From contig OZ246395.1 in NCBI GenBank assembly GCA_965230915.1, positions 728,935-792,934 on the forward strand: a DNA stretch of 64,000 nt, read 5' to 3'. The stretch comes from an uncultured Candidatus Saccharibacteria bacterium. Its GTDB lineage: Bacteria; Patescibacteriota; WWE3; 2-01-FULL-39-13. A model generated the notes under the pieces. The model had not been told where the DNA came from, made no database searches, and worked only from the letters and a program-made list of their open reading frames with translations. Positions 7,828 through 19,177 of the stretch are shown here, piece by piece (positions within the stretch are counted from its first letter, which is position 1; each line of letters opens with the position of its first letter). Position numbers and translations under genes: made by a program.

Positions 7828-8542
7828 TTTTATTTTCCTTTTGTTGCTCTTTAATTATACTCAACTCTTTCTCAATTTCTTCATGTAAATCGCGCTCTCC
7901 GCGCCGACATTTGTATTCAATTATACTCGATGATAGGTGTGCTGGTGGATACTTCATACCTGTCGACATTAAAGTGCGTTCATGCAGTTCATGCAATATT
8001 ACAAAAGCACGCTCCGCAGGACCTAAATCGTCGTCGATCCAAACCTCACCTTCGGGAACAAAATCGTAAACAAATTCGTGCCCGCCTTCGGTAAAGTCCA
8101 CATAATATAAATCTCGAACTAACTCCCCTGAAACTATCCAAACATCTACACCTTGAGAATAGGTTTCTAGTCTATCAACATATAATGCAGTAGGGATTTT
8201 TTTGTGATCTTTTTTTCTGACTTTTAATAAAAATTCGGACTTCGCTCTTTCTTTTTTCTCTTCGCTATCGGCCTTTTCGATTGCAGATTCATATGAAACA
8301 CCATTTGACATTAAATCCCATTCAATCAGTAAGTGATTTATAAAAAAATCATCTTCACCCGGAGCATATTCTTTATCAAGCCAAAATTCTCTTGTTGGAA
8401 TAAAAGGATATTTATAATGCTGGCCAAAGTTTGTGAATTCGCGGTTTATATGGTCACGAATATATTTTCCGTCTACAATATAAATTTCAAAACCATTAAG
8501 ATCTGAGTGTTTTTTAATATAAGGCTTTTGAAGCTCTGCCAT
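7820..8542 (-). CDS. hypothetical protein with an internally duplicated domain; the second copy carries HExxH (HELHE)
   Basis: Two roughly 75-aa repeats align (IV.G..(I/V)RD...FT..G...Y.F(I/V)P..E.W.D....E..F.I.H.L.E..LMS.G..Y). Repeat 2 has ILHELHE. Repeat 1 has the degenerate INHLLIE. Confidence 0.5.
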   Translation of the reverse strand: MAELQKPYIKKHSDLNGFEIYIVDGKYIRDHINREFTNFGQHYKYPFIPTREFWLDKEYAPGEDDFFINHLLIEWDLMSNGVSYESAIEKADSEEKKERAKSEFLLKVRKKDHKKIPTALYVDRLETYSQGVDVWIVSGELVRDLYYVDFTEGGHEFVYDFVPEGEVWIDDDLGPAERAFVILHELHERTLMSTGMKYPPAHLSSSIIEYKCRRGERDLHEEIEKELSIIKEQQKENKNA

Positions 8543-9522
8543 TATTTTGATTGTACAGCAACCAAGATATTTTCCAATTCCTGAATAACTTCTTCGCTGG
8601 TTTTGGCTTCGACTAACTTCATTCTGTGTTCTTTAAAATGGTCCATACCTTTAAAGTACCAAGATAAATGTTTTCTAAAGGTGACAACGCCGCGTTCTCC
8701 ATATTGTGCGACATGATATTGTAAATGCAGTTTGATAACTTCGAGGCGTTCTTCTAATGAAACTTTGTCGTAACGGCCTGTTTCTAAAAGTTGTTTTGTT
8801 TGCTTAAAAAACCATGGGTTGCCAAGCGCTCCGCGAGCAATTAAAACTCCATCGGCTTTTGTAACTTCTAGAGCTTCTAAAACTTTTTCAGGAGTATGAA
8901 TGTCCCCATTAGCCAAAAGTGGAATCGAAACTGCTTTTTTAACTTTGGCGATTTGTTCCCAATTAGAGACTCCAGAATAACCCTGTTCTTTTGTACGACC
9001 ATGAACAGTTATTAATTCTGCGCCGGCATCCTGCATAGCTGGGGCAAAGGTTAGGCAATCTTGGTCGTTCGACCAACCCAGTCTTATTTTTACTGAAAGT
9101 GGGACACTTAATACACTTTTCATTTGGCGGACAATTTCAGAAGCGATTTTGGGGTCTTTCATTAAAGCGCATCCGTTAAAGTTATGAGTAATTTTATAAA
9201 CCGGACAGCCCATGTTTATGTCAAAACCCTCTGGGCCGAAATCCCTTTGAATAATTTCTGCGGCGTCGCGCATAACAATAGGATCGCTCCCGAATAGCTG
9301 CTGAACCAACGGTCTTTCATCAGAATGAATTTCTGTCATTTCCAAGGTCTTATCGTTATGACGAACAACGGCTTCGGCAGACACCATTTCACGGAACATT
9401 ATCGGATAGTCTTTTTCCCCTGTTACCTTTTTTACAATCTGGCAAAAAGCCGAGTCGGTCATATCTGCCATCGGAGATAGAGCTATTATTGGTTTTGATT
9501 GGTTTGCCCATTCAAGTTTCAT
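8542..9522 (-). CDS. dusB: tRNA-dihydrouridine synthase
   Basis: TIM-barrel Dus family: LSPMADMTD, catalytic Cys in NMGCPV, C-terminal helical domain. Confidence 0.85.
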   Translation of the reverse strand: MKLEWANQSKPIIALSPMADMTDSAFCQIVKKVTGEKDYPIMFREMVSAEAVVRHNDKTLEMTEIHSDERPLVQQLFGSDPIVMRDAAEIIQRDFGPEGFDINMGCPVYKITHNFNGCALMKDPKIASEIVRQMKSVLSVPLSVKIRLGWSNDQDCLTFAPAMQDAGAELITVHGRTKEQGYSGVSNWEQIAKVKKAVSIPLLANGDIHTPEKVLEALEVTKADGVLIARGALGNPWFFKQTKQLLETGRYDKVSLEERLEVIKLHLQYHVAQYGERGVVTFRKHLSWYFKGMDHFKEHRMKLVEAKTSEEVIQELENILVAVQSK

Positions 9523-9639: not shown

Positions 9640-10080
9640 TTAGAAGACGCGAACACCCTGAACCGTCAAAATGTTAGTTGGCGAGCCATAGGCAGAAATT
9701 GTCAGCCAGCGATTTTCCGGAAGTACTGACAACAAAACCAGCCACGATGGCTCGGTCCAAAAAATCGAAAAGTTGCAACCAGGAATTTTTTCACCTGGCT
9801 TCCAAATTTCCGGAATCGCGGCTTCGGTCCATGCGCGATCTGTAGCCAGATCAACGCTAAAACCGATGGATCTGTCTGCTGGAAGCGGACACATTCGGTC
9901 TCTAAACCTCACGATGTACCCGTGGTATATACCACCCTCTTGAAAGGCCGAAATTTCGGGCTTTTTTGTAACCTCCCCGATCTTCCCCTTGGCGTCCCCC
10001 ATAATTCGGAGCACCCACTGTGGCACTGCCTCAAGACCTCTTATAGTTTGAGGAGCATAAACAACAGAAGAGCCGTACAT
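9640..10080 (-). CDS. hypothetical protein (orphan, elevated GC)
   Basis: 146-aa ORF. By eye roughly 50% GC, against roughly 40% in the flanks. It has its own terminator. No family recognised. Confidence 0.45.
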   Translation of the reverse strand: MYGSSVVYAPQTIRGLEAVPQWVLRIMGDAKGKIGEVTKKPEISAFQEGGIYHGYIVRFRDRMCPLPADRSIGFSVDLATDRAWTEAAIPEIWKPGEKIPGCNFSIFWTEPSWLVLLSVLPENRWLTISAYGSPTNILTVQGVRVF

Positions 10081-10225: not shown

Positions 10226-10582
10226 CTACTTATCGTCCGGTAACAAAAGTGACAAAATTCCGCTAACAACAGACATTAAAATACTTAAACCGAGTGCCCA
10301 TAAAAAGTTATCGATGGTAAAACCGGGAACTATCAAGTCAACAAGCATAATCATTAAGGCGTTAATAACCAATGAAAAAAGGCCAAGAGTCATGATATTA
10401 ATTGGTAAAGTAAGAATCATTAAAACTGGCCTAATTATTGCGTTAATAAGTCCTAAGACAAAAGCAACTAGAAGTGCAGTTAAAAAAGTATCGATTTTAA
10501 CGCCATCTAATATTGATGTACAAAAGAAAACTACAATTGCGGTTCCGATAAGTCTTATTATAAATCCAAGCATGTTGTTCAC
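10226..10582 (-). CDS. 4-TM membrane protein, phage-holin-4-like (YvlD/PF04020-like)
   Basis: 118 aa, four hydrophobic helices. The sequence pattern (..LNA.IRPVL.ILTLP..I.TLGLF.L..N) resembles B. subtilis YvlD family proteins. Confidence 0.6.
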   Translation of the reverse strand: MNNMLGFIIRLIGTAIVVFFCTSILDGVKIDTFLTALLVAFVLGLINAIIRPVLMILTLPINIMTLGLFSLVINALMIMLVDLIVPGFTIDNFLWALGLSILMSVVSGILSLLLPDDK

Positions 10583-10660: not shown

Positions 10661-11566
10661 TTATTTCGTAAAAAGTATAGAAAAATAACTTGTAGTCTGA
10701 ATTGTATTATTTTCTAAAATTTCTCCGGAGTTTGTATTAAACAAAAGCTCCTGTTTTTTTGCGTTAATTGATTCCATTAAGTGCAAAAGTAACCCAATAG
10801 AATCAGGGCTATCTACATAATCATTATTTAAATTGCTTAAACTATAATAATCGTAACTACTCATTATTTTTTGAGTAACTACATCATTTGCCTTCGCCTG
10901 ATCTGCATTTAAATAATGTGAAAAATCGACGGCAGCAATAACTACGGTATCTTCGTCAATATACTTTTGTAATTCTACAGTTAAATTCGAAATATCTTCT
11001 TGGGAAGTAAAACCGCTTAACACAACCGGGATAACCTGAGCCTCGGGCAAATAATATTTGATGTAGTGCAAAATTCCTCCAATTGAATGCTCACCTATTA
11101 CTACATCGTCATTTTCTATTAATGTGTTAGATTCAACTAACATAGAAATATCAGCATAATCAGATGCGAGTATTCCATGTTCTGTTTTCCAATTCGCCTT
11201 CGATGTTATTGGCCGAATACCTCCACGTTCATGATGATTTGGCCCAACTAAAATTATCTTTTTAGGATTTTGCGCAGATAATTTTTCAAAAAAGTCTGAA
11301 AGTATGTATCCGGGCAATAAGTGGTGCGGAATTATTCCGCCATAAATTTTGTTTCCACTGTATGAACTTTTCACCTTTTGGGCTTTTACAATTCCTTCCT
11401 GAAAATCTTTTGCGGAATAAAATCTTGCGTTTAAAACTTTGTCGCTTTGGCGTGCATTATTAACGCCTAATATTCTTAATTTGTCTAAATCTATCGGATA
11501 AATTGTGCCTAGTACAACGCCCAATATGGCAAACGCACAGATAATAAGGCTAAGTTTGAGGTTCAT
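10661..11566 (-). CDS. MEMO1-family protein (AmmeMemoRadiSam system protein B-like) with N-terminal signal anchor
   Basis: Motifs GGIIPHH, LVGPNHHERGG and AAVDFSHY (MEMO1/LigB-like fold). N-terminal hydrophobic segment LSLIICAFAILGVVLG. The start overlaps the upstream giant gene by 17 nt. Confidence 0.75.
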   Translation of the reverse strand: MNLKLSLIICAFAILGVVLGTIYPIDLDKLRILGVNNARQSDKVLNARFYSAKDFQEGIVKAQKVKSSYSGNKIYGGIIPHHLLPGYILSDFFEKLSAQNPKKIILVGPNHHERGGIRPITSKANWKTEHGILASDYADISMLVESNTLIENDDVVIGEHSIGGILHYIKYYLPEAQVIPVVLSGFTSQEDISNLTVELQKYIDEDTVVIAAVDFSHYLNADQAKANDVVTQKIMSSYDYYSLSNLNNDYVDSPDSIGLLLHLMESINAKKQELLFNTNSGEILENNTIQTTSYFSILFTK

Positions 11567-14500
11567 TTTTCTTACTTAAATCTCTTCTTGGTTTTCTGAT
11601 TACCTTTACTAAGAATACTATTATTGCGATTGTTGCAATTCCATACAATACTATTTGCCATTTTGGTGTACGTGCAACGGCAACTTTTCCGGATTCTATT
11701 AAATTAGCATCGTCTTCTATTAAGTATGGATATGCATATGTGGCGAAGTTTCGATAATCGTTACGCAAACTCTGATCGCCTAGTGCATTTGCATCAGCCA
11801 AATCTGTGCTTTCTTTTGTAATACTGATTTTTGCGGCATCTGATCTTCCGTGAATTTCAGGCGAATACATTAACGAAGCCGTAGCAGGAGGCACTTCATA
11901 TGTTCCCTCGGTTATCGCACGTGCCTTGTAATTTAGATAAGAATATCCGCTCCTATAGCTGTAGGTGTATCTGATGGCACCATTTTGCGTATATTCGTCA
12001 CCTGAATAATAGTCATAACTATCACCTGAGCTAAATTGTTCATTATTAAACGATTCATTTACAGGAACTAGTCCGGCAGGCAACTCATCTTGAATTACTC
12101 CATATCGGCTTTCTGACTCGTAATTATTCTTAACTTGAACATATACATCAACTAAATCACCAACAGCAATTGACTTACCTGCACCTTTTTCACTTACGTA
12201 CGCTCTCTTTACGTCTAAACCTGTCGACATAGCCTTTGTATTTGGATCTGTATGGAATTCCTTAACCATCATCGAAGTCAGCAATTCACCTGTGCCATCC
12301 TTGGTAATTTCTAAATTAGAACCACCAGCTTTTATAGAATAACTTGGAATTGTTATTTCTTTAGGTGCTTGCTCAAGACTTGTAAATCTTCCGGTTGATA
12401 ATATTGCCCCATCTAAAGAGACTGTATATGAATAATTTGTGTTAGCTAAATTTTGAACTTTTGCGTATTCAGAAATCGAAGCCATAACTTGAGCGGTTCC
12501 ATGTGTATTGCCCCAGAAATAATTTCCTTTTGCCTGATTTAAATATTTAATTGTTTCTTTTAGAAGTTCTTTTTCTGATCCATTAGCAATTATTGCCCGT
12601 ACAGCTAACGCAGTTGCACTTTGATTAGTACTGAATGTTTCAGAATTATTACTTTCCCAATGGGCTAAACCAGATTGTCTTTTAGCCGAAGAGACTAATT
12701 TTGTTAAGCCTGACTGGTTCGAATCTTTAATACCACGGTTTGAATTTATTATGACAGCCAAAGCGTTTGCCTCGATTGATAACCCTTCAAAATCATTTAT
12801 AGTTTCAGTGTTCTTTCCTAATACTTCGAGGCCATATATTGAATAAACTTTTGCAGATTTATTTTCAGAATTTAATTTTGATTTAAAATAATTTTCTGCG
12901 TTATCTAGTGTTGTTTGGTTTACTTCGTATCCAAGCTGTTTGGCCTTCATAAGATTTTCTACAATATAAGCAGATAAATACTCATTTGAATCTCCGACAA
13001 AAACCCAGGTCCAACCGCCATCACCTTGTTGATGGTCTTCGATGCGTTTAACTCCGTCTTTTAGAATCTCGTCCATGTTTTTATCGACCATTGCAGATGC
13101 AAACACTTTAGGATTGCTTCTTGCAACAATAGCAGGAACAAAACGGCTTGTGGTTTGTTCCATACATCCGTATGGATAATCAACCAAATAATCCATTGCC
13201 GGTCTTAGTGACCCTAATATATCCGCAGAAACACTTAATTTAGTGCTGCTTAAATCGTTAACTGCATCAGATGAATATTTTGCTTGATATGAAGCATTAT
13301 CCTGTTTGCTTTCGACGCGCTCTTCGTAAAATCCGAATTTCTTAATTGGAATAACTTGAGCTATGGTGTCAGAATTTTCTTCTGCTGATTTAGAAACAGC
13401 CGAATAAGTAAATTTAGCTTTATCATCTACTTTAATTGGCTCAACATTCCACGAAACTGTTGCTGATTTATTTGGCTCGATTCTTACTTCTTGAGTTGCA
13501 GAAGGTAATATATTTGCAGCCTCTGATCTTAGGGTCACATTAAAAGTATCAGCATTCTTGGTATAGTTTTGAACTAAAGCAGTCAAAATCGTTGTATCGC
13601 GTTCTCTTATGATATTGGGAATTGTAGGTCGAACAATCACATTTTTGCCTACAACAATTTCTTCTTTGGCAATTCCAACTTGAGTAGTTGTATTTGCTGC
13701 GATTCCAGCGATTACCCAGGTTGTTAAATTATCTGGAAGTTTAAATGATACGCTGGCTTTTCCTTCAAGGTCAGTTCTAAGTGATGGATTCCAGTATGCA
13801 GTATCTTTAAACACAGTTCTTGTGTCACCTTTTTGGTTGTGTACCCAAACTCCGCCGGCAAAATATGTGTGATATTTTTCAACTTCTAAATTGTATACAT
13901 CAACTGATCTATTTATTATCTCGATTGAATTTACATGTACGTATTTACCTTCGTCACTAAGTAATAAGTCTCCTTTTTGTACAGTTCCGGCTTCTTGCCA
14001 AGTATTGTTAATCCACATCACATGATTAGGAGTAACCTTTATGCTTCCGTTTAAAATCATGTAGCCGTTTACTGACTTTTTGAAAGTCTCTGTTACGGTT
14101 GCTTCAACTAATTTTGTGTCATCTTCGCCGGCTTTAGTTAGAACTTTATCTCCGACTTTTATGTCTTCGATCGAAACCAATCCATTCTTGGTTAATACTT
14201 TAGTGTCGCCTACAAAACATCCACCGCCGCTTTCTGCACCTGAAGAACTTATACCTTGTAATGAATTTGTAGAATTTGTGTCGTTGTATCTTTCTGACCA
14301 AAACCTATCCAGAATATCGTAGTTATTTTGATCAACCAGTTCAAAGATCGCTTTATCTACTGTCCATAAAGCCATGTCGGTTGAGACAGGTTTATTGGTG
14401 CTGTCAGTTGTAGTAACGTCGACTGTAATATCTTCACCCGGGCCATATCGCGACCCACCGCGTGGAGTAATCTGTACATTTATTTTCTTGTTTTCGGTTG

Positions 14501-16910
14501 AAATTACAATGTTTTCGGAACTGCTTATTATAGATTTTCCATCAAAAGATGTAGCCACAACAAAAACGTTTGGCGAATCAGTGTTAACAAGGGGAACGTC
14601 TATGTTTGCAGTTCCATTTTCAATTCTAGTTGTAAAGTATCTTTGTGTTCGTCCTCTTTCTAAAGTTATTAATGCATCACGGTTGGACTTATCTTCAGTT
14701 GTAATTAACACTTTTGCTGTATCTTCAGGGTTATAGAGTTTTTTATCTACGCTAACGCGCATATTTGATTGGCCATAGTCGCCAAACCCGTAATATGAGG
14801 AATATTCTTTTTCAGCAATATAGAAACTAAAATTACGACTTATTTTATTTCCTATAGAATCTGAATATTTAATGGTTATCGTATAACTTCCAGTTTCTGA
14901 TGGTGTAAATTTATAAGTTAAATTTCCTTCTCCATCTGTTTTTATATTTTTCGTATCAATTTCACCTCTAACTTCCTTATATGATGGATATTTTTGATTT
15001 TCTTCATAAACGGCTTCGTATCTCATCCATGTACCGGAAATTTCTACATTTATATTTGAAACTTTGCTGTTGTTTCGGTATGCAACAATTTGCATTGGAA
15101 TTTCAAATTGCTTATTAACAACTCCTCCATATGGAGCATCTTCTTGTAGATAAACATTCGATTCGCCTTTGTAAAAGAGGATGTTTTTCCTGGCAAAACT
15201 TGGGTTTCCGGAACCATTATCGTATTCAGCTTCGATAGTTAAAATCTGGTTTGATTTATACGTATCACCCAAATTTATATCTTCATCAAAAATTGCTTCG
15301 CCATTATCATTAAACTCTAGCTCTCCGTGTTTAAATTCGCTTCCGTACCAATATCCGTATCGATAATCGTCGCTAAGACCTTCGTTTTGGTAGTCTCGAT
15401 AGTAATAATAATCGTAATAATCAGCAGAATAGATTCTATAGCTTACCTTTCCTTCGGTAATTGGTTGACCAGAGAAATAATTTCCTAAAGCTTTAAAATA
15501 TAATCTGTCTCCGGACACATAATCTTTGTCCTCAACAGAAAGATCTATGTTGTATTCGGGTTTTCTATAATATTCGACCTGAAAGTATTCGCTTGCCGGA
15601 TAATAATAGTCATCTGGATCATGCTGAACTATTGGGTATTCGATGCTAACACTGTAATCACCGGTTTTTGCGTTTTCTGGTAATTTATAAGATCCATAAA
15701 TTGTTCCCTCTGGGGTTATATTCATTCGTGCGCTATATACAACCGATGTATCTTCCCAACCATCTTTGATTTGTACTAAAGCTTCACCGCTTGGGATAGT
15801 GTATCTGGCGTCGTCATCAGACCTTATGATCGCTTTAAAATTTACTGTGTTTCCCGGCATATAAAGCGGGCGATCAGTAAAAATGAAGAATCTTGTGTTT
15901 ATTTCTTTTTCTCTAAAGTAATCATAGTTATAGCCGTAGTCTACGTATTGTAAATTTAGAGGAATAACTGCCACTTCATTTCCGCGGTATACAACAGCTA
16001 AATCACCTCTACTTAGTATTGGAGTTGTTGCAATTCCTTCTGAATTAAACCTTCCATTTGCGACTTCAGTTACTTTGTCAGCCAAATTAAAAACTTTTAT
16101 GTTGCCGTCGTCGATGCTTTCGTTAACTTTTAAATTTTGTCCCCAATAGACAATTTCATTGTTGCCTTCTTTAGAAACAACTGCGTAAGTCGACCTTACA
16201 ATAAAGGCACCATCATTAGTTTTATTAGCCGTATCAGATGCGGTAGCTCTTACAAAATAAATTCCAGATTCATCTAGCGGAAGTACCACTTTAGTATCTG
16301 ATGAATTTTTATCTGCAATATTAACTTCTAATTCTTTTACTAATTGTGAATTGCTTTCATTAAAAGGATTTTTTGTTTTATAGTCTTCTGTTTCATACAC
16401 AAGGGAATTTAAAACGTCAGATTCGGATGCGCGATACAGTTTAACCGTAACTTTACCTGTAAATGCACGGTTTGACAGATAAATAGCCGGTTCTTCAAGA
16501 GAAGTAAGCGAAATTAATTGAGAAGGAGAATAATCGCTTCCGTTTTCTAAAATAATAAGTTCAGGATCTTGTTGGTAATAGTAATCTCCAAAATTATTCT
16601 GCTGGCTGGTGTTCTGATTACTTTGAGTGGTTTGAGTATTATTTACTGCAGGTATAGCATTTTGCCTTTGAATATCCTGATAAATTGCAGCCAAAACATA
16701 CACTGTTGAAAATATTAGAGACGAAAGAACAATAAAAACCACTCTACGAAATCTTTTTGACTCTTTGAATCTTTTAAATGGATTTTTACTTTTTTTGACT
16801 TCTTGAGGTTGGTTGTTTTTGTTTTTTTTGATCGGTTCAGCGGTCATGTTTGCGTGATCACCATTTTCTTCTGAAATAGCTTGATTTAAATCGGGTTGAG
16901 ACTTAGCCAT
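11550..16910 (-). CDS. alpha-2-macroglobulin family thioester-containing giant surface protein with an embedded Hint/BIL domain. It has both an N-terminal signal anchor and a C-terminal TM anchor.
   Basis: 1786 aa. Thioester motif YGCMEQ (CxEQ) at aa 1249-1252. Conserved pre-bait segment MALWTVDKAIFEL and post-bait segment TRTVFKDTAYWNPSL...LPDNLTTW. TED-like HQQGDGGW. N-terminal TM (RRVVFIVLSSLIFSTVYVLAAIY), C-terminal TM (IVLYGIATIAIIVFLV) plus a basic tail. Tyr-rich low-complexity runs. AGAGG RBS 6 nt upstream of the ATG. Confidence 0.85.
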   Translation of the reverse strand: MAKSQPDLNQAISEENGDHANMTAEPIKKNKNNQPQEVKKSKNPFKRFKESKRFRRVVFIVLSSLIFSTVYVLAAIYQDIQRQNAIPAVNNTQTTQSNQNTSQQNNFGDYYYQQDPELIILENGSDYSPSQLISLTSLEEPAIYLSNRAFTGKVTVKLYRASESDVLNSLVYETEDYKTKNPFNESNSQLVKELEVNIADKNSSDTKVVLPLDESGIYFVRATASDTANKTNDGAFIVRSTYAVVSKEGNNEIVYWGQNLKVNESIDDGNIKVFNLADKVTEVANGRFNSEGIATTPILSRGDLAVVYRGNEVAVIPLNLQYVDYGYNYDYFREKEINTRFFIFTDRPLYMPGNTVNFKAIIRSDDDARYTIPSGEALVQIKDGWEDTSVVYSARMNITPEGTIYGSYKLPENAKTGDYSVSIEYPIVQHDPDDYYYPASEYFQVEYYRKPEYNIDLSVEDKDYVSGDRLYFKALGNYFSGQPITEGKVSYRIYSADYYDYYYYRDYQNEGLSDDYRYGYWYGSEFKHGELEFNDNGEAIFDEDINLGDTYKSNQILTIEAEYDNGSGNPSFARKNILFYKGESNVYLQEDAPYGGVVNKQFEIPMQIVAYRNNSKVSNINVEISGTWMRYEAVYEENQKYPSYKEVRGEIDTKNIKTDGEGNLTYKFTPSETGSYTITIKYSDSIGNKISRNFSFYIAEKEYSSYYGFGDYGQSNMRVSVDKKLYNPEDTAKVLITTEDKSNRDALITLERGRTQRYFTTRIENGTANIDVPLVNTDSPNVFVVATSFDGKSIISSSENIVISTENKKINVQITPRGGSRYGPGEDITVDVTTTDSTNKPVSTDMALWTVDKAIFELVDQNNYDILDRFWSERYNDTNSTNSLQGISSSGAESGGGCFVGDTKVLTKNGLVSIEDIKVGDKVLTKAGEDDTKLVEATVTETFKKSVNGYMILNGSIKVTPNHVMWINNTWQEAGTVQKGDLLLSDEGKYVHVNSIEIINRSVDVYNLEVEKYHTYFAGGVWVHNQKGDTRTVFKDTAYWNPSLRTDLEGKASVSFKLPDNLTTWVIAGIAANTTTQVGIAKEEIVVGKNVIVRPTIPNIIRERDTTILTALVQNYTKNADTFNVTLRSEAANILPSATQEVRIEPNKSATVSWNVEPIKVDDKAKFTYSAVSKSAEENSDTIAQVIPIKKFGFYEERVESKQDNASYQAKYSSDAVNDLSSTKLSVSADILGSLRPAMDYLVDYPYGCMEQTTSRFVPAIVARSNPKVFASAMVDKNMDEILKDGVKRIEDHQQGDGGWTWVFVGDSNEYLSAYIVENLMKAKQLGYEVNQTTLDNAENYFKSKLNSENKSAKVYSIYGLEVLGKNTETINDFEGLSIEANALAVIINSNRGIKDSNQSGLTKLVSSAKRQSGLAHWESNNSETFSTNQSATALAVRAIIANGSEKELLKETIKYLNQAKGNYFWGNTHGTAQVMASISEYAKVQNLANTNYSYTVSLDGAILSTGRFTSLEQAPKEITIPSYSIKAGGSNLEITKDGTGELLTSMMVKEFHTDPNTKAMSTGLDVKRAYVSEKGAGKSIAVGDLVDVYVQVKNNYESESRYGVIQDELPAGLVPVNESFNNEQFSSGDSYDYYSGDEYTQNGAIRYTYSYRSGYSYLNYKARAITEGTYEVPPATASLMYSPEIHGRSDAAKISITKESTDLADANALGDQSLRNDYRNFATYAYPYLIEDDANLIESGKVAVARTPKWQIVLYGIATIAIIVFLVKVIRKPRRDLSKKNEPQT
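13155..13166 (-). other. thioester site CMEQ (CxEQ) of the alpha-2-macroglobulin homolog
   Basis: tgt atg gaa caa on the minus strand, in the context DYPYGCMEQTTSRF. Confidence 0.8.
13836..14219 (-). other. Hint (intein-like / BIL-type) domain, aa 898-1025 of the alpha-2-macroglobulin homolog
   Basis: Block A CFVGDTKVL (Cys1), block B KVTPNHVMW, block F VYNLEVEKYHTYFA, block G GGVWVHN. Codons cac-aac-caa show that the +1 residue is Gln, not Cys/Ser/Thr. Confidence 0.8.
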
Positions 16911-18316: not shown

Positions 18317-19084
18317 CTAAAAAGTAGATATAAATCCCCTTAATTTTTGAGGAAAAATATCGTCTAAAGCTAGAATATCAGAACTATATATTTCAATAAG
18401 ACCTAAATTATAATTTTTATATAACTCTTGTTTCCGTTTTTTCCTCTCTAAATATTCCTTATCTTTAAGACCCCAGTATTCAATATATATAACATCATGA
18501 CTAGTAGAGCTTGGTATAAAAAAATCGCAATACATTTCTTCTTTAATCGGAACTTTCTTCTCATACCCGTGTAAAATTTTACTGTTAAATAACCAATTAT
18601 CTATAATTAGCTCATCCATACTTCTAACTCTATGGCCATCGTCTGCAATATATTTGGCCGGAAATTTATTTCTAAAAACATTACCTAGATGATCTTCTCG
18701 TTGAGTGGACCTATACATATTGTCCAACGCCTGTGTAATATCAGGTTTTAACAATACAGGCATAAAATCTCGAAATTTAATTAAGTTTTCTATATCCGAT
18801 TTTGAAATAGGATTGTAATTCTCAACTCTTTCTACTTTAATTTGCCATGGAAATTTCCCTCCCCAAGCTTCTTTGACAATATTGACGCTACATTTAGATA
18901 TTGCCCTGAATTTTCCATGCAATAAACCAGATGTGTAGTTATAAAGGAAAAGAGTATCTCCAACATTAATATCTTCAGTGTACGGTTTGTACTTTAGAGT
19001 TCCTCCAAATAGCATTCGGTTGAAGCACTCTTTTTCCGTCGCATTTGAACATAAAAATATATAGCTTTTCTTTGCATCATTCAT
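18317..19084 (-). CDS. DCD-domain (PUA-like, EVE-related) protein with C-terminal Vsr/DUF559-like endonuclease-like domain
   Basis: N-terminal YIFLCSN..EKECF..MLFGG.....I.VGDTLFLYNYTSGLLHGKFRA...FPWQIKV matches the DCD signature (FGLP / LFLFNY / PAQV blocks). C-terminal CDFFIP..(11)..VIYIEYWG.....R......L...LGLIEIYSSDI resembles the YxvDF...IEvDG...R...L..GW.VlR core of Vsr-like PD-(D/E)xK domains; this is tentative. The start was set at Met16 to clear tRNA-Ser. Confidence 0.6.
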   Translation of the reverse strand: MNDAKKSYIFLCSNATEKECFNRMLFGGTLKYKPYTEDINVGDTLFLYNYTSGLLHGKFRAISKCSVNIVKEAWGGKFPWQIKVERVENYNPISKSDIENLIKFRDFMPVLLKPDITQALDNMYRSTQREDHLGNVFRNKFPAKYIADDGHRVRSMDELIIDNWLFNSKILHGYEKKVPIKEEMYCDFFIPSSTSHDVIYIEYWGLKDKEYLERKKRKQELYKNYNLGLIEIYSSDILALDDIFPQKLRGFISTF

Positions 19085-19089
19085 ATTTC

Positions 19090-19177
19090 TGGCGGAGGGG
19101 ACAGGATTCGAACCTGCGGTGTTATTCACACACTACCTTTCCAAGATAGCGCACTAGACCAACTATGCGACCCCTCC
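19090..19177 (-). tRNA. tRNA-Ser (anticodon GGA), type II with long variable arm, CCA encoded
   Basis: GGAGGGG acceptor, anticodon loop UUGGAAA, variable arm GTGTGTGAATAACAC, T-loop TTCGAAT, 3' CCCCTCCGCCA. Confidence 0.9.

Follow-up and report, generated by a model that had tools for sequence, protein, structure and literature searches.

What happens when the loop by which an alpha-2-macroglobulin (A2M) or complement protein is fired, normally by the cut of an outside protease, holds a domain known only to cut or re-join its own flanks? This question is raised by a locus on contig OZ246395.1 of an uncultured Candidatus Saccharibacteria bacterium, of which we analyzed a 64-kb stretch (the window). 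All coordinates given here are positions in that whole window, and the genes for its A2M, for a MEMO-family protein and for a YvlD-like protein all lie on the minus strand. The A2M-family gene (11550..16910) is one unbroken open reading frame (ORF) of 1786 aa with a ribosome-binding site, AAGAGG, 5 nt before its ATG, and its product is a 100% match to database protein P0001. We found an intact Hint domain of the bacterial intein-like (BIL) type in the bait loop of this protein. Judging by the catalytic residues that the domain carries, the loop is probably cut autocatalytically after export, as a maturation step or as a protease-independent trigger or sensitizer.

Outside the bait loop, the protein has the makeup of a bacterial A2M. 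Pfam matches to MG2 (residues 340-444; 15579..15893; PF01835, E = 5.5e-16), the A2M bait-region domain A2M_BRD (residues 718-858; 14337..14759; PF07703, E = 1.7e-12), the A2M domain, which is the macroglobulin (MG) domain after the bait (residues 1037-1127; 13530..13802; PF00207, E = 4.8e-19), the thioester domain TED (residues 1226-1343) and the bacterial C-terminal MG domain bMG10 (residues 1564-1685; 11856..12221; PF17973, E = 2e-17) follow one another in the expected order, each with a score above the curated cut-off. An initial annotation of this DNA had described a CMEQ thioester and a DGGW motif, and both are present, the first at residues 1249-1252 (C1249-Q1252; 13155..13166) and the second at residues 1297-1300, within the TED match. 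That annotation depended on conservation of the thioester Cys and Gln, and both are kept in the family alignment: Cys, Glu and Gln are invariant in 29 aligned sequences (alignment A1), and the motif is present in 77 of 78 family members. By these sequence features, the gene encodes a thioester-containing A2M of the bacterial type, predicted to be monomeric.

The 128-aa Hint domain (A-type BIL, PT-HINT) spans residues 898-1025 (13836..14219), between the bait-region domain and the A2M domain, and is recognized by Pfam, by fold and by motifs. Pfam PT-HINT matches residues 905-1026 (E = 4.8e-19), weaker matches to Hint, Vint, Hint_2 and intein-splicing families fall on the same stretch, and NCBIfam places intein N- and C-terminal splicing regions there. 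The domain begins at C898 (GGG/CFVGDTKVLT, with the slash at the boundary) and ends at N1025 (GVWVHN/QKGD), and it contains block A (Cys1-Phe2), block B (VT960-P-N-H963), block F (VYNLEVEKYHTYFA) and block G (His1024-Asn1025). When the family profile over A2M residues 700-1130 was used to search the PDB, the best match was 2LWY, the solution structure of a Clostridium thermocellum BIL domain (E = 4.6e-17), followed by Tetrahymena BUBL BIL2 (6TMM/6Y75; E = 1e-15) and then by mini-inteins; the regions flanking the Hint matched A2M, C5 and the Escherichia coli A2M, ECAM (YfhM), separately from the Hint matches. A word-based search with the Hint segment alone as query returned no match. In an AlphaFold2 model of residues 700-1130, the predicted local distance difference test score (pLDDT) is 73-94 over the Hint and below 50 over the 37 residues on its N-terminal side and the 12 on its C-terminal side, indicating a folded module inside a disordered loop. 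Foldseek superposed the modeled Hint on 2LWY with a TM-score of 0.85 (rmsd 1.8 Å, 36% identity) and on BIL2 with a TM-score of about 0.8. The initial annotation had correctly seen conserved A2M blocks before and after the bait, but it read them as ordinary and overlooked the intact domain between them. Instead of the short disordered bait without a folded insert that characterizes A2Ms, this protein has a folded 128-aa Hint with disordered flanks, and an intact Hint/BIL domain at this place likely changes the mechanism relative to that of an ordinary A2M.

Where in the bait does the domain sit? The N-side bait loop (residues 859-897; 14220..14336) ends in AE-x-GGG, and the C-side loop, QKGDTRTVFKD (residues 1026-1036; 13803..13835), supplies Gln at position +1 and Lys at +2 relative to the Hint, with an invariant arginine, R1031, downstream; pLDDT is below 50 in both loops (model residues 160-196 and 329-340). 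The family hidden Markov model (HMM) aligned with ECAM over residues 191-922, 975-1322 and 1461-1650, and the gap that opens after K922 and closes at V975 is the ECAM bait. In ECAM, the bait segment R923-L942 is lost upon elastase cleavage, and R956 of the cut bait binds the C-terminal MG domain, displacing the thioester domain (PMC4498604). A multiple alignment placed the family's AE-x-GGG under ECAM AALRFGG (943-949), such that the N-side loop corresponds roughly to ECAM 923-949 and the Hint insertion site to about G949/D950, between the elastase-removed R923-L942 and R956. In this short, gapped alignment, the invariant R1031 (QKGDTR) is plausibly the equivalent of R956 (DGDELKR). The Hint lies a few residues upstream of the stretch whose untethering activates ECAM.

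A database search recovered about 72 close relatives of the A2M (33-61% identity), all of them from metagenomes or metagenome-assembled genomes with Patescibacteria (candidate phyla radiation, CPR) labels: Blackburnbacteria, Moranbacteria, Woesebacteria, Daviesbacteria, WWE3 and Microgenomates. The Hint occupies one alignment column in 61 of 78 aligned proteins and is cleanly missing from the other 17. Distinct Hint-bearing A2M copies number more than 100 and span dozens of 50%-identity clusters; pooling every sequence fetched gave 116 distinct A2M-embedded Hints. All 116 have Cys1, the terminal His-Asn and Gly at -1, and in 111 of them this glycine completes a Gly-Gly pair. Phe2 and the block-B Thr and His are likewise invariant across the 61 aligned Hint-bearing A2Ms, 59 of which have Lys at +2. 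At +1, the 116 copies have Gln (64), Asp (26), Glu (18), Gly (3), Asn (2), Lys (2) or Leu (1), and in no case Cys, Ser or Thr. By the definition of the Hint family, Cys1, the block-B His and the terminal His-Asn would make N-terminal thioester formation and C-cleavage by Asn cyclization possible. The trans-esterification step of splicing would be impossible because there is no +1 nucleophile, so that self-cleavage or non-canonical splicing is to be expected. BIL domains without a +1 nucleophile give predominantly N- and C-cleaved products (PMC7664689, PMC7765530).

Topology was assigned from Kyte-Doolittle hydropathy in 19-aa windows and the positive-inside pattern, together with one AlphaFold2 helix for the MEMO protein. 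The initial annotation had put a transmembrane (TM) segment at each end of the A2M, and the hydropathy peaks bear this out: 2.45 at residues 58-76 within an N-terminal anchor (residues ~58-79; 16674..16739), and 2.71 at residues 1753-1771 within a C-terminal anchor (residues ~1750-1771; 11598..11663). The first is preceded by a strongly basic, presumably cytoplasmic tail of 57 aa, and the second is followed by the basic tail KVIRKPRRDLSKKNEPQT, in which KVIRKPRRD comes after the hydrophobic segment. Two such segments would place both tails in the cytoplasm and a body of about 1670 aa outside. Nearly all of the ~72 family members have both segments, whether or not they have a Hint. We therefore rejected the idea that the twin anchors evolved to hold two Hint-made chains. 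The window A2M has exactly two cysteines, the Hint nucleophile C898 and the thioester C1249, which makes a lipobox impossible; two is also the most frequent number in the family, and most Hint-less members have one.

The mechanism that we favor would begin with the A2M held on the outer face of the membrane by its signal-anchor and C-terminal TM segment, with the Hint folding after export. The Gly897-Cys898 peptide bond would then be converted to a thioester through an N-to-S acyl shift, and Asn1025 would cyclize; with Gln, Glu or Asp at +1 and no nucleophile, the usual outcome would be cleavage on one or both sides. This would yield an N-chain (MG1 to the bait-region domain, ending in GGG) and a C-chain (starting at QKGDTR and containing TED and MG10), each tethered by its own TM helix. 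One possible outcome is two-chain maturation, of the kind that furin brings about by cutting C3, C4 and C5 in the corresponding loop. Alternatively, the trap would be pre-triggered or sensitized without an attacking protease, with the release of the ECAM TED on untethering as a parallel. Complement C3, C4 and C5 carry an anaphylatoxin domain and a furin site in their bait-homologous loop and become two-chain thioester proteins, and all three were among the structural matches. In complement, however, external proteases do the processing and the inserted domain is unrelated, whereas in the A2M described here the inserted domain itself would cut.

Several points weigh against autocatalytic cleavage of the bait. 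Both anchors and the MEMO partner are equally frequent with and without the Hint, and the existence of clean Hint-less members implies that the Hint is dispensable for the role of the protein, which fits a passenger as well as a functional element. A self-firing A2M also seems wasteful. The topology calls were made on hydropathy alone, and the assignment of Asp252 as a metal ligand in the MEMO partner (below) depends partly on what we take to be the MEMO1 sequence, which was compared with the PDB alignment and the published residue numbers. Finally, some A-type BILs are said, going by the titles of work by Dassa in 2004 and Aranko in 2013, to join their two flanks even where no nucleophilic side chain is available, in which case a spliced, ordinary A2M would be possible.

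Is the Hint, then, a passenger that splices itself out? It would leave the protein, and the bait would be re-joined by A-type BIL ligation, in which the freed +1 amino group attacks the Gly-Cys thioester; the product would be an ordinary single-chain A2M, to which the Hint adds nothing or at most a delay in maturation. The distribution of the domain fits this idea well. Hint-less P0068 is 74% identical to Hint-bearing P0046 and only 63% identical to its nearest Hint-less protein, and the Hint-less P0047, P0048, P0063 and P0072 are each nearest to Hint-bearing proteins. We count at least four to five independent changes of presence or absence, a sporadic distribution like that of inteins, and this scatter of Hint-less members among Hint-bearing relatives suggests several independent losses (or gains). 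The indel between the two kinds of A2M is exactly C...HN plus the following QK, and Hint-less proteins retain the flanks AE-x-GGG / G-GD-x-R, the TM anchors, the thioester and the MEMO partner. Related Hints in many other surface proteins, often in tandem, suggest a module that proliferates, and catalytic residues would be strictly kept in a passenger too, to avoid killing the host protein; the reported ligation without nucleophilic side chains would supply the chemistry. Against this, none of the 116 copies has Cys, Ser or Thr at +1, and BILs mostly yield cleaved products (PMC7664689, PMC7765530). The copies are all mini-domains of ~128 aa with no homing endonuclease. Moreover, neighbor-joining trees of the Hint and of its host largely agree, the pairwise identities of the two co-vary (r = 0.76), with the Hint slightly more conserved (52%) than the host (45%), and the GC content of the Hint, 0.359, matches that of the gene, 0.358, all of which indicates long vertical inheritance of the Hint under constraint. 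The same composition and co-variation do not support a recent horizontal acquisition. The choice of residues at +1 and +2 (Gln, Glu or Asp, then Lys) is also unlike that of the non-A2M copies, which have Lys at +1, suggesting adaptation to the site. On this evidence, we consider a splicing passenger unlikely, if worth keeping in mind.

Other uses of the same chemistry can be imagined. An external amine might resolve the Gly-Cys thioester, so that an isopeptide bond attaches the N-fragment to lysine or to amines of the wall or of a host surface, while C-cleavage frees the TED thioester; the A2M would then serve an episymbiont as an adhesin or trap that fires by itself and binds covalently. The invariant Gly at -1, which follows another Gly in 111 of 116 copies, resembles the ubiquitin-like substrates of BIL2, the second-best solved relative of the window Hint, and Tetrahymena BIL2 moves a GG-terminated N-extein to lysines as an isopeptide, without ATP and activated by zinc (PMC8616854). 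The ECAM mechanism implies that TED would be freed once the R956-equivalent segment is untethered, and Patescibacteria A2Ms have been discussed as membrane-localized giant surface proteins of episymbionts (PMC9793634). This is an argument from analogy with no acceptor known, however, and Hint-less orthologues exist; the intact A2M architecture and a serpin gene beside the cassette in one locus point to protease inhibition rather than adhesion. We regard such an adhesin or trap as improbable. Somewhat less doubtful, though still not a reading that we expect to hold, is a self-firing switch with a second, backbone thioester, perhaps gated by metal, pH or redox state, in which the BIL excises itself after export and so unties the peptide that displaces the thioester domain, the GG-ended N-chain and/or TED couples to amines or hydroxyls of an attacking protease or of the host cell on which the episymbiont sits, and MEMO is a dedicated partner. 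If true, a bacterium would be tagging or adhering covalently in the manner of complement but without need of a protease, and prokaryotic MEMO proteins would gain a first defined context. The Hint might instead not react at all, serving as a folded plug or enlarged target while proteases cut the disordered linkers of an envelope-defense A2M with its accessories. The linkers on both sides are indeed predicted to be disordered and would be accessible to proteases, and the classical A2M machinery is intact. Yet all the autoprocessing catalytic residues are invariant in 116 copies whose hosts are only 33-60% identical, which is hard to explain without activity, and the YvlD-like gene that the initial annotation placed in such a module is not conserved. 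An inert bait is accordingly the reading to which we give very little credence, and self-cleavage of the loop is the one that we carry forward.

Hints at this bait position also occur beyond the close relatives. A distant clade of A2Ms (2147-2270 aa, 25-28% identity), which lacks the C-terminal TM segment, likewise carries a Hint at this place in the bait; in two of its loci (L004, 3755..12813; L030, 1737..10827), the A2M has Big_5/bMG3 domains and adjoins a gene for a protein like penicillin-binding protein 1C (PBP1C), with Transgly, Transpeptidase and BiPBP_C domains. A2Ms linked to pbpC, some of them with a Hint, form clades apart from the MEMO-linked core. The Hints of P0073 and P0078, which belong to distant A2M clades, are 44-49% identical to core Hints, while their hosts are only 20-26% identical, and they nest within the core Hints in a weak neighbor-joining tree; that their Hints are more alike than their hosts hints at Hint exchange between A2M paralogues. 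A search of 1.84 billion representatives with the Hint profile matched 46,221 proteins, 797 of them at E <= 1e-30. Among the best 150 matches, about 31 are of A2M size and have a single Hint at residues ~800-980. The Hint described here belongs to a widespread BIL lineage of exported proteins, one branch of which is fixed in the A2M bait.

The remaining proteins among these best 150 are mostly of surface type, with Laminin_G_3, PKD, Y_Y_Y, TSP_3 or pilin-like N_methyl domains. The non-A2M surface proteins (P0222-P0300) carry 2-14 tandem Hints that keep Cys1 and His-Asn and have mostly Lys at +1; P0222, for example, has 14 Hint stretches in 1285 aa, and P0228 and P0230 are further multi-Hint proteins. 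Such proteins may form a self-fragmenting or self-conjugating class of exported proteins.

We also asked which genes accompany the A2M. The MEMO-family (AmmeMemoRadiSam-B-like) gene (10661..11566; 301 aa) starts with an ATG that precedes the end of the A2M gene by 17 nt, an overlap that the initial annotation had reported and that the ORF coordinates (11550..16910 and 10661..11566) confirm, and the two would be translationally coupled. Neighborhoods were surveyed by an ORF scan of 80 species-representative loci and on annotated contigs. MEMO lies directly downstream of the A2M gene in three of three annotated contigs, one of them with a Hint-less A2M, and beside it in ~27 of the 30 Patescibacteria-type loci with enough flanking DNA (upstream in one); three loci lack a downstream MEMO and have an opposite-strand gene there. 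The two genes often overlap by 4-17 nt. Conversely, three MEMO homologues on long contigs each had a Hint-bearing A2M directly upstream. The expectation that MEMO would be conserved next to A2M in relatives is thus borne out among Patescibacteria, while MEMO was beside the A2M in none of ~45 loci from Acidobacteriota, Ignavibacteria, Chloroflexota and similar groups. A role for MEMO in serving the Hint was considered and rejected, since MEMO accompanies Hint-less A2Ms and some pbpC-linked A2Ms bear a Hint without MEMO. MEMO goes with the double-anchored clade, whether or not a Hint is present.

Bacterial A2Ms are classically paired with PBP1C (pbpC). As the initial annotation had stated, there is no pbpC here: the 64-kb window contains no class-A PBP, and it contains no second A2M and no second MEMO either. 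In this clade, the place of PBP1C as conserved companion of the A2M is taken by MEMO, and the two genes make up a surface cassette of a kind typical of Patescibacteria, for which "envelope-defense module" is a plausible label for a putative function. The YvlD/Phage_holin_4_2-type protein with four TM segments that is encoded next after MEMO (10226..10582; PF04020, E = 8.6e-32) had been counted as part of this module, and here the initial annotation does not stand, as no homologue was found in 84 related loci. Neither AMMECR1 nor a radical-SAM partner was found among annotated neighbors in six loci or among the window genes scanned by Pfam, a search that did not extend to whole genomes. In one metagenomic locus (L086), a serpin gene (7996..9237, plus strand; PF00079) comes immediately after the A2M(Hint)-MEMO pair, giving three putative protease-related genes in a row.

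What kind of protein is the MEMO partner? It scores above the cut-offs of Pfam Memo (PF01875; E = 1e-20, 74.4 bits against 27) and NCBIfam TIGR04336 (92.8 bits against 26), which agrees with its earlier description as MEMO-like, and below the equivalog model NF001987 (82 bits against 295). The GIIPHH, GPNHH and DFSHY motifs named in that description are present and conserved in the family, which comprises 249 matches at 37-64% identity. The N-terminal signal anchor proposed with them finds a counterpart in a hydrophobic segment kept throughout the family and in an AlphaFold2 model (pLDDT 94.3) with a helix at residues 2-22, a low-confidence linker and a MEMO fold from about residue 44. Such an anchor or signal would make the protein extracytoplasmic. 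Foldseek ranked the MEMO1 structures 7KQ8, 7M8H and 3BCZ first (TM-scores 0.72-0.74), followed by LigB-type extradiol dioxygenases; a PDB search with the single sequence gave no match, and the alignment with MEMO1 came from the family profile. H81, H111, D214 and H217 are invariant in the family, and H160 and D252 nearly so.

The Fe or Cu ion of MEMO1 is coordinated by H49, H81 and C244, the last of which has Glu as its counterpart in dioxygenases (PMC11081632). In the profile alignment, H81 and H111 of the window protein correspond to the two ligand histidines of MEMO1, H49 and H81, and Asp252 aligns with C244 and is Asp in at least 90% of the MEMO family. For the C244 column we used what we take to be the MEMO1 sequence, whose residues 49, 81, 131, 189, 192 and 244 agree with the published numbering. 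The metal ligands expected of a MEMO-like protein are therefore kept in part, with both histidines retained and the MEMO1 cysteine replaced. We predict that the partner is an exported or membrane-anchored protein with a 2-His-1-carboxylate metal site formed by His81, His111 and Asp252. Our best guess for its putative function is a metal-dependent activity on or beside the A2M at the cell surface.

The initial annotation had also pointed to two Tyr-rich segments in the A2M, and both are present. The first, an aromatic loop reading YYDYYYYRDYQ...YRYGYWYG (residues 498-523; 15342..15419), is conserved as Y..Y.Y.Y...YRYGYW across the Patescibacteria A2M family, with ~20% Tyr; 80% or more of the core members keep the pattern Y..Y.Y.Y...YG, and ECAM has no such loop. 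The second (residues 1632-1658) is mostly peculiar to the window A2M, lies on ordinary MG10 strands and is not a feature of the family. Purely as speculation, the dioxygenase-like MEMO could act on the aromatic loop or dock there.

How does this locus compare with systems already described? With ECAM and Salmonella SaA2M, the window A2M shares the MG ring, the bait-region domain, CxEQ in TED and the C-terminal MG10, as well as a monomer-type architecture and an outward-facing tether to the cytoplasmic membrane, and the PDB matches include 4ZIQ, 5A42, 4RTD and 4U48. ECAM and SaA2M, in contrast, have an N-terminal lipid and are linked to pbpC, whereas the window A2M has a TM helix at each end and no such link; relative to ECAM, it adds the conserved Tyr-rich loop and the 128-aa Hint in the bait loop. 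By its domains and thioester it is a bacterial A2M; what sets it apart from the others is how it is anchored, which gene accompanies it and what its bait contains. The Hint shares with A-type BILs (2LWY; BUBL BIL2, 6Y75) the fold, Cys1, the block-B Thr and His, the C-terminal His-Asn, the lack of a +1 nucleophile and a place in an exported protein, and that same lack sets it apart from canonical class 1 inteins. Known BILs are found either upstream of a toxin module or in the hypervariable parts of proteins that are not themselves conserved (PMC7765530). Unlike them, the window Hint occupies one fixed site between conserved blocks of a conserved family, with no toxin module, and that site is where cleavage switches the host protein. 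Motifs and fold make the insert an A-type BIL/PT-HINT domain, though its context does not. The window MEMO shares the MEMO/LigB fold with MEMO1 and AmmeMemoRadiSam B (PF01875, TIGR04336), along with equivalents of H49, H81, H131, D189 and H192. It differs in having Asp252 in place of Cys244, giving a predicted 2-His-1-carboxylate site as in the extradiol dioxygenases (which use Glu), in its N-terminal anchor or signal, and in having an A2M neighbor, with neither AMMECR1 nor a radical-SAM protein among the neighbors annotated in six loci.

Full-text searches of the open-access literature found no paper on an A2M with an embedded Hint, intein or BIL domain, and none on a pairing of A2M with MEMO. 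Thioester proteins of an entire clade may be able to process or trigger themselves, which would place BIL chemistry in a new context and possibly offer an A2M scaffold that cleaves itself by nature. The primary molecular function of the MEMO family is still called unknown (PMC11081632), and the pairing with A2M offers a concrete handle on it, through an exported MEMO with a dioxygenase-like predicted His-His-Asp site. A2M genes of Patescibacteria have been noted to encode giant, probably membrane-localized surface proteins, maybe guarding against host proteases (PMC9793634), and the cassette bears on how these wall-poor, episymbiotic bacteria protect or use their exposed membrane.

Scans for promoters and terminators gave no signal above shuffled expectation, and no PADLOC model matches the A2M, the MEMO or the holin-like protein. 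Two further ORFs, both on the minus strand, lie nearby. One (9640..10080; 146 aa) has no Pfam or NCBIfam match and no Rfam family at threshold, lies in a stretch with a raised GC content (0.41 compared with ~0.36), and may be spurious or an orphan gene. The other (18317..19129; 270 aa) has an N-terminal DCD domain (Dev_Cell_Death, PUA/EVE-like; Pfam E = 1.8e-23) and a C-terminal half that matches the PADLOC candidate defense family PDC-S69 (E = 4e-39) and HEAT_CxxC_PD-DEXK, and it may be a defense gene that combines a modified-base reader with a nuclease. The GTG start listed for this ORF overlaps a tRNA-Ser(gga) gene (19090..19177), and its true start is therefore probably internal.

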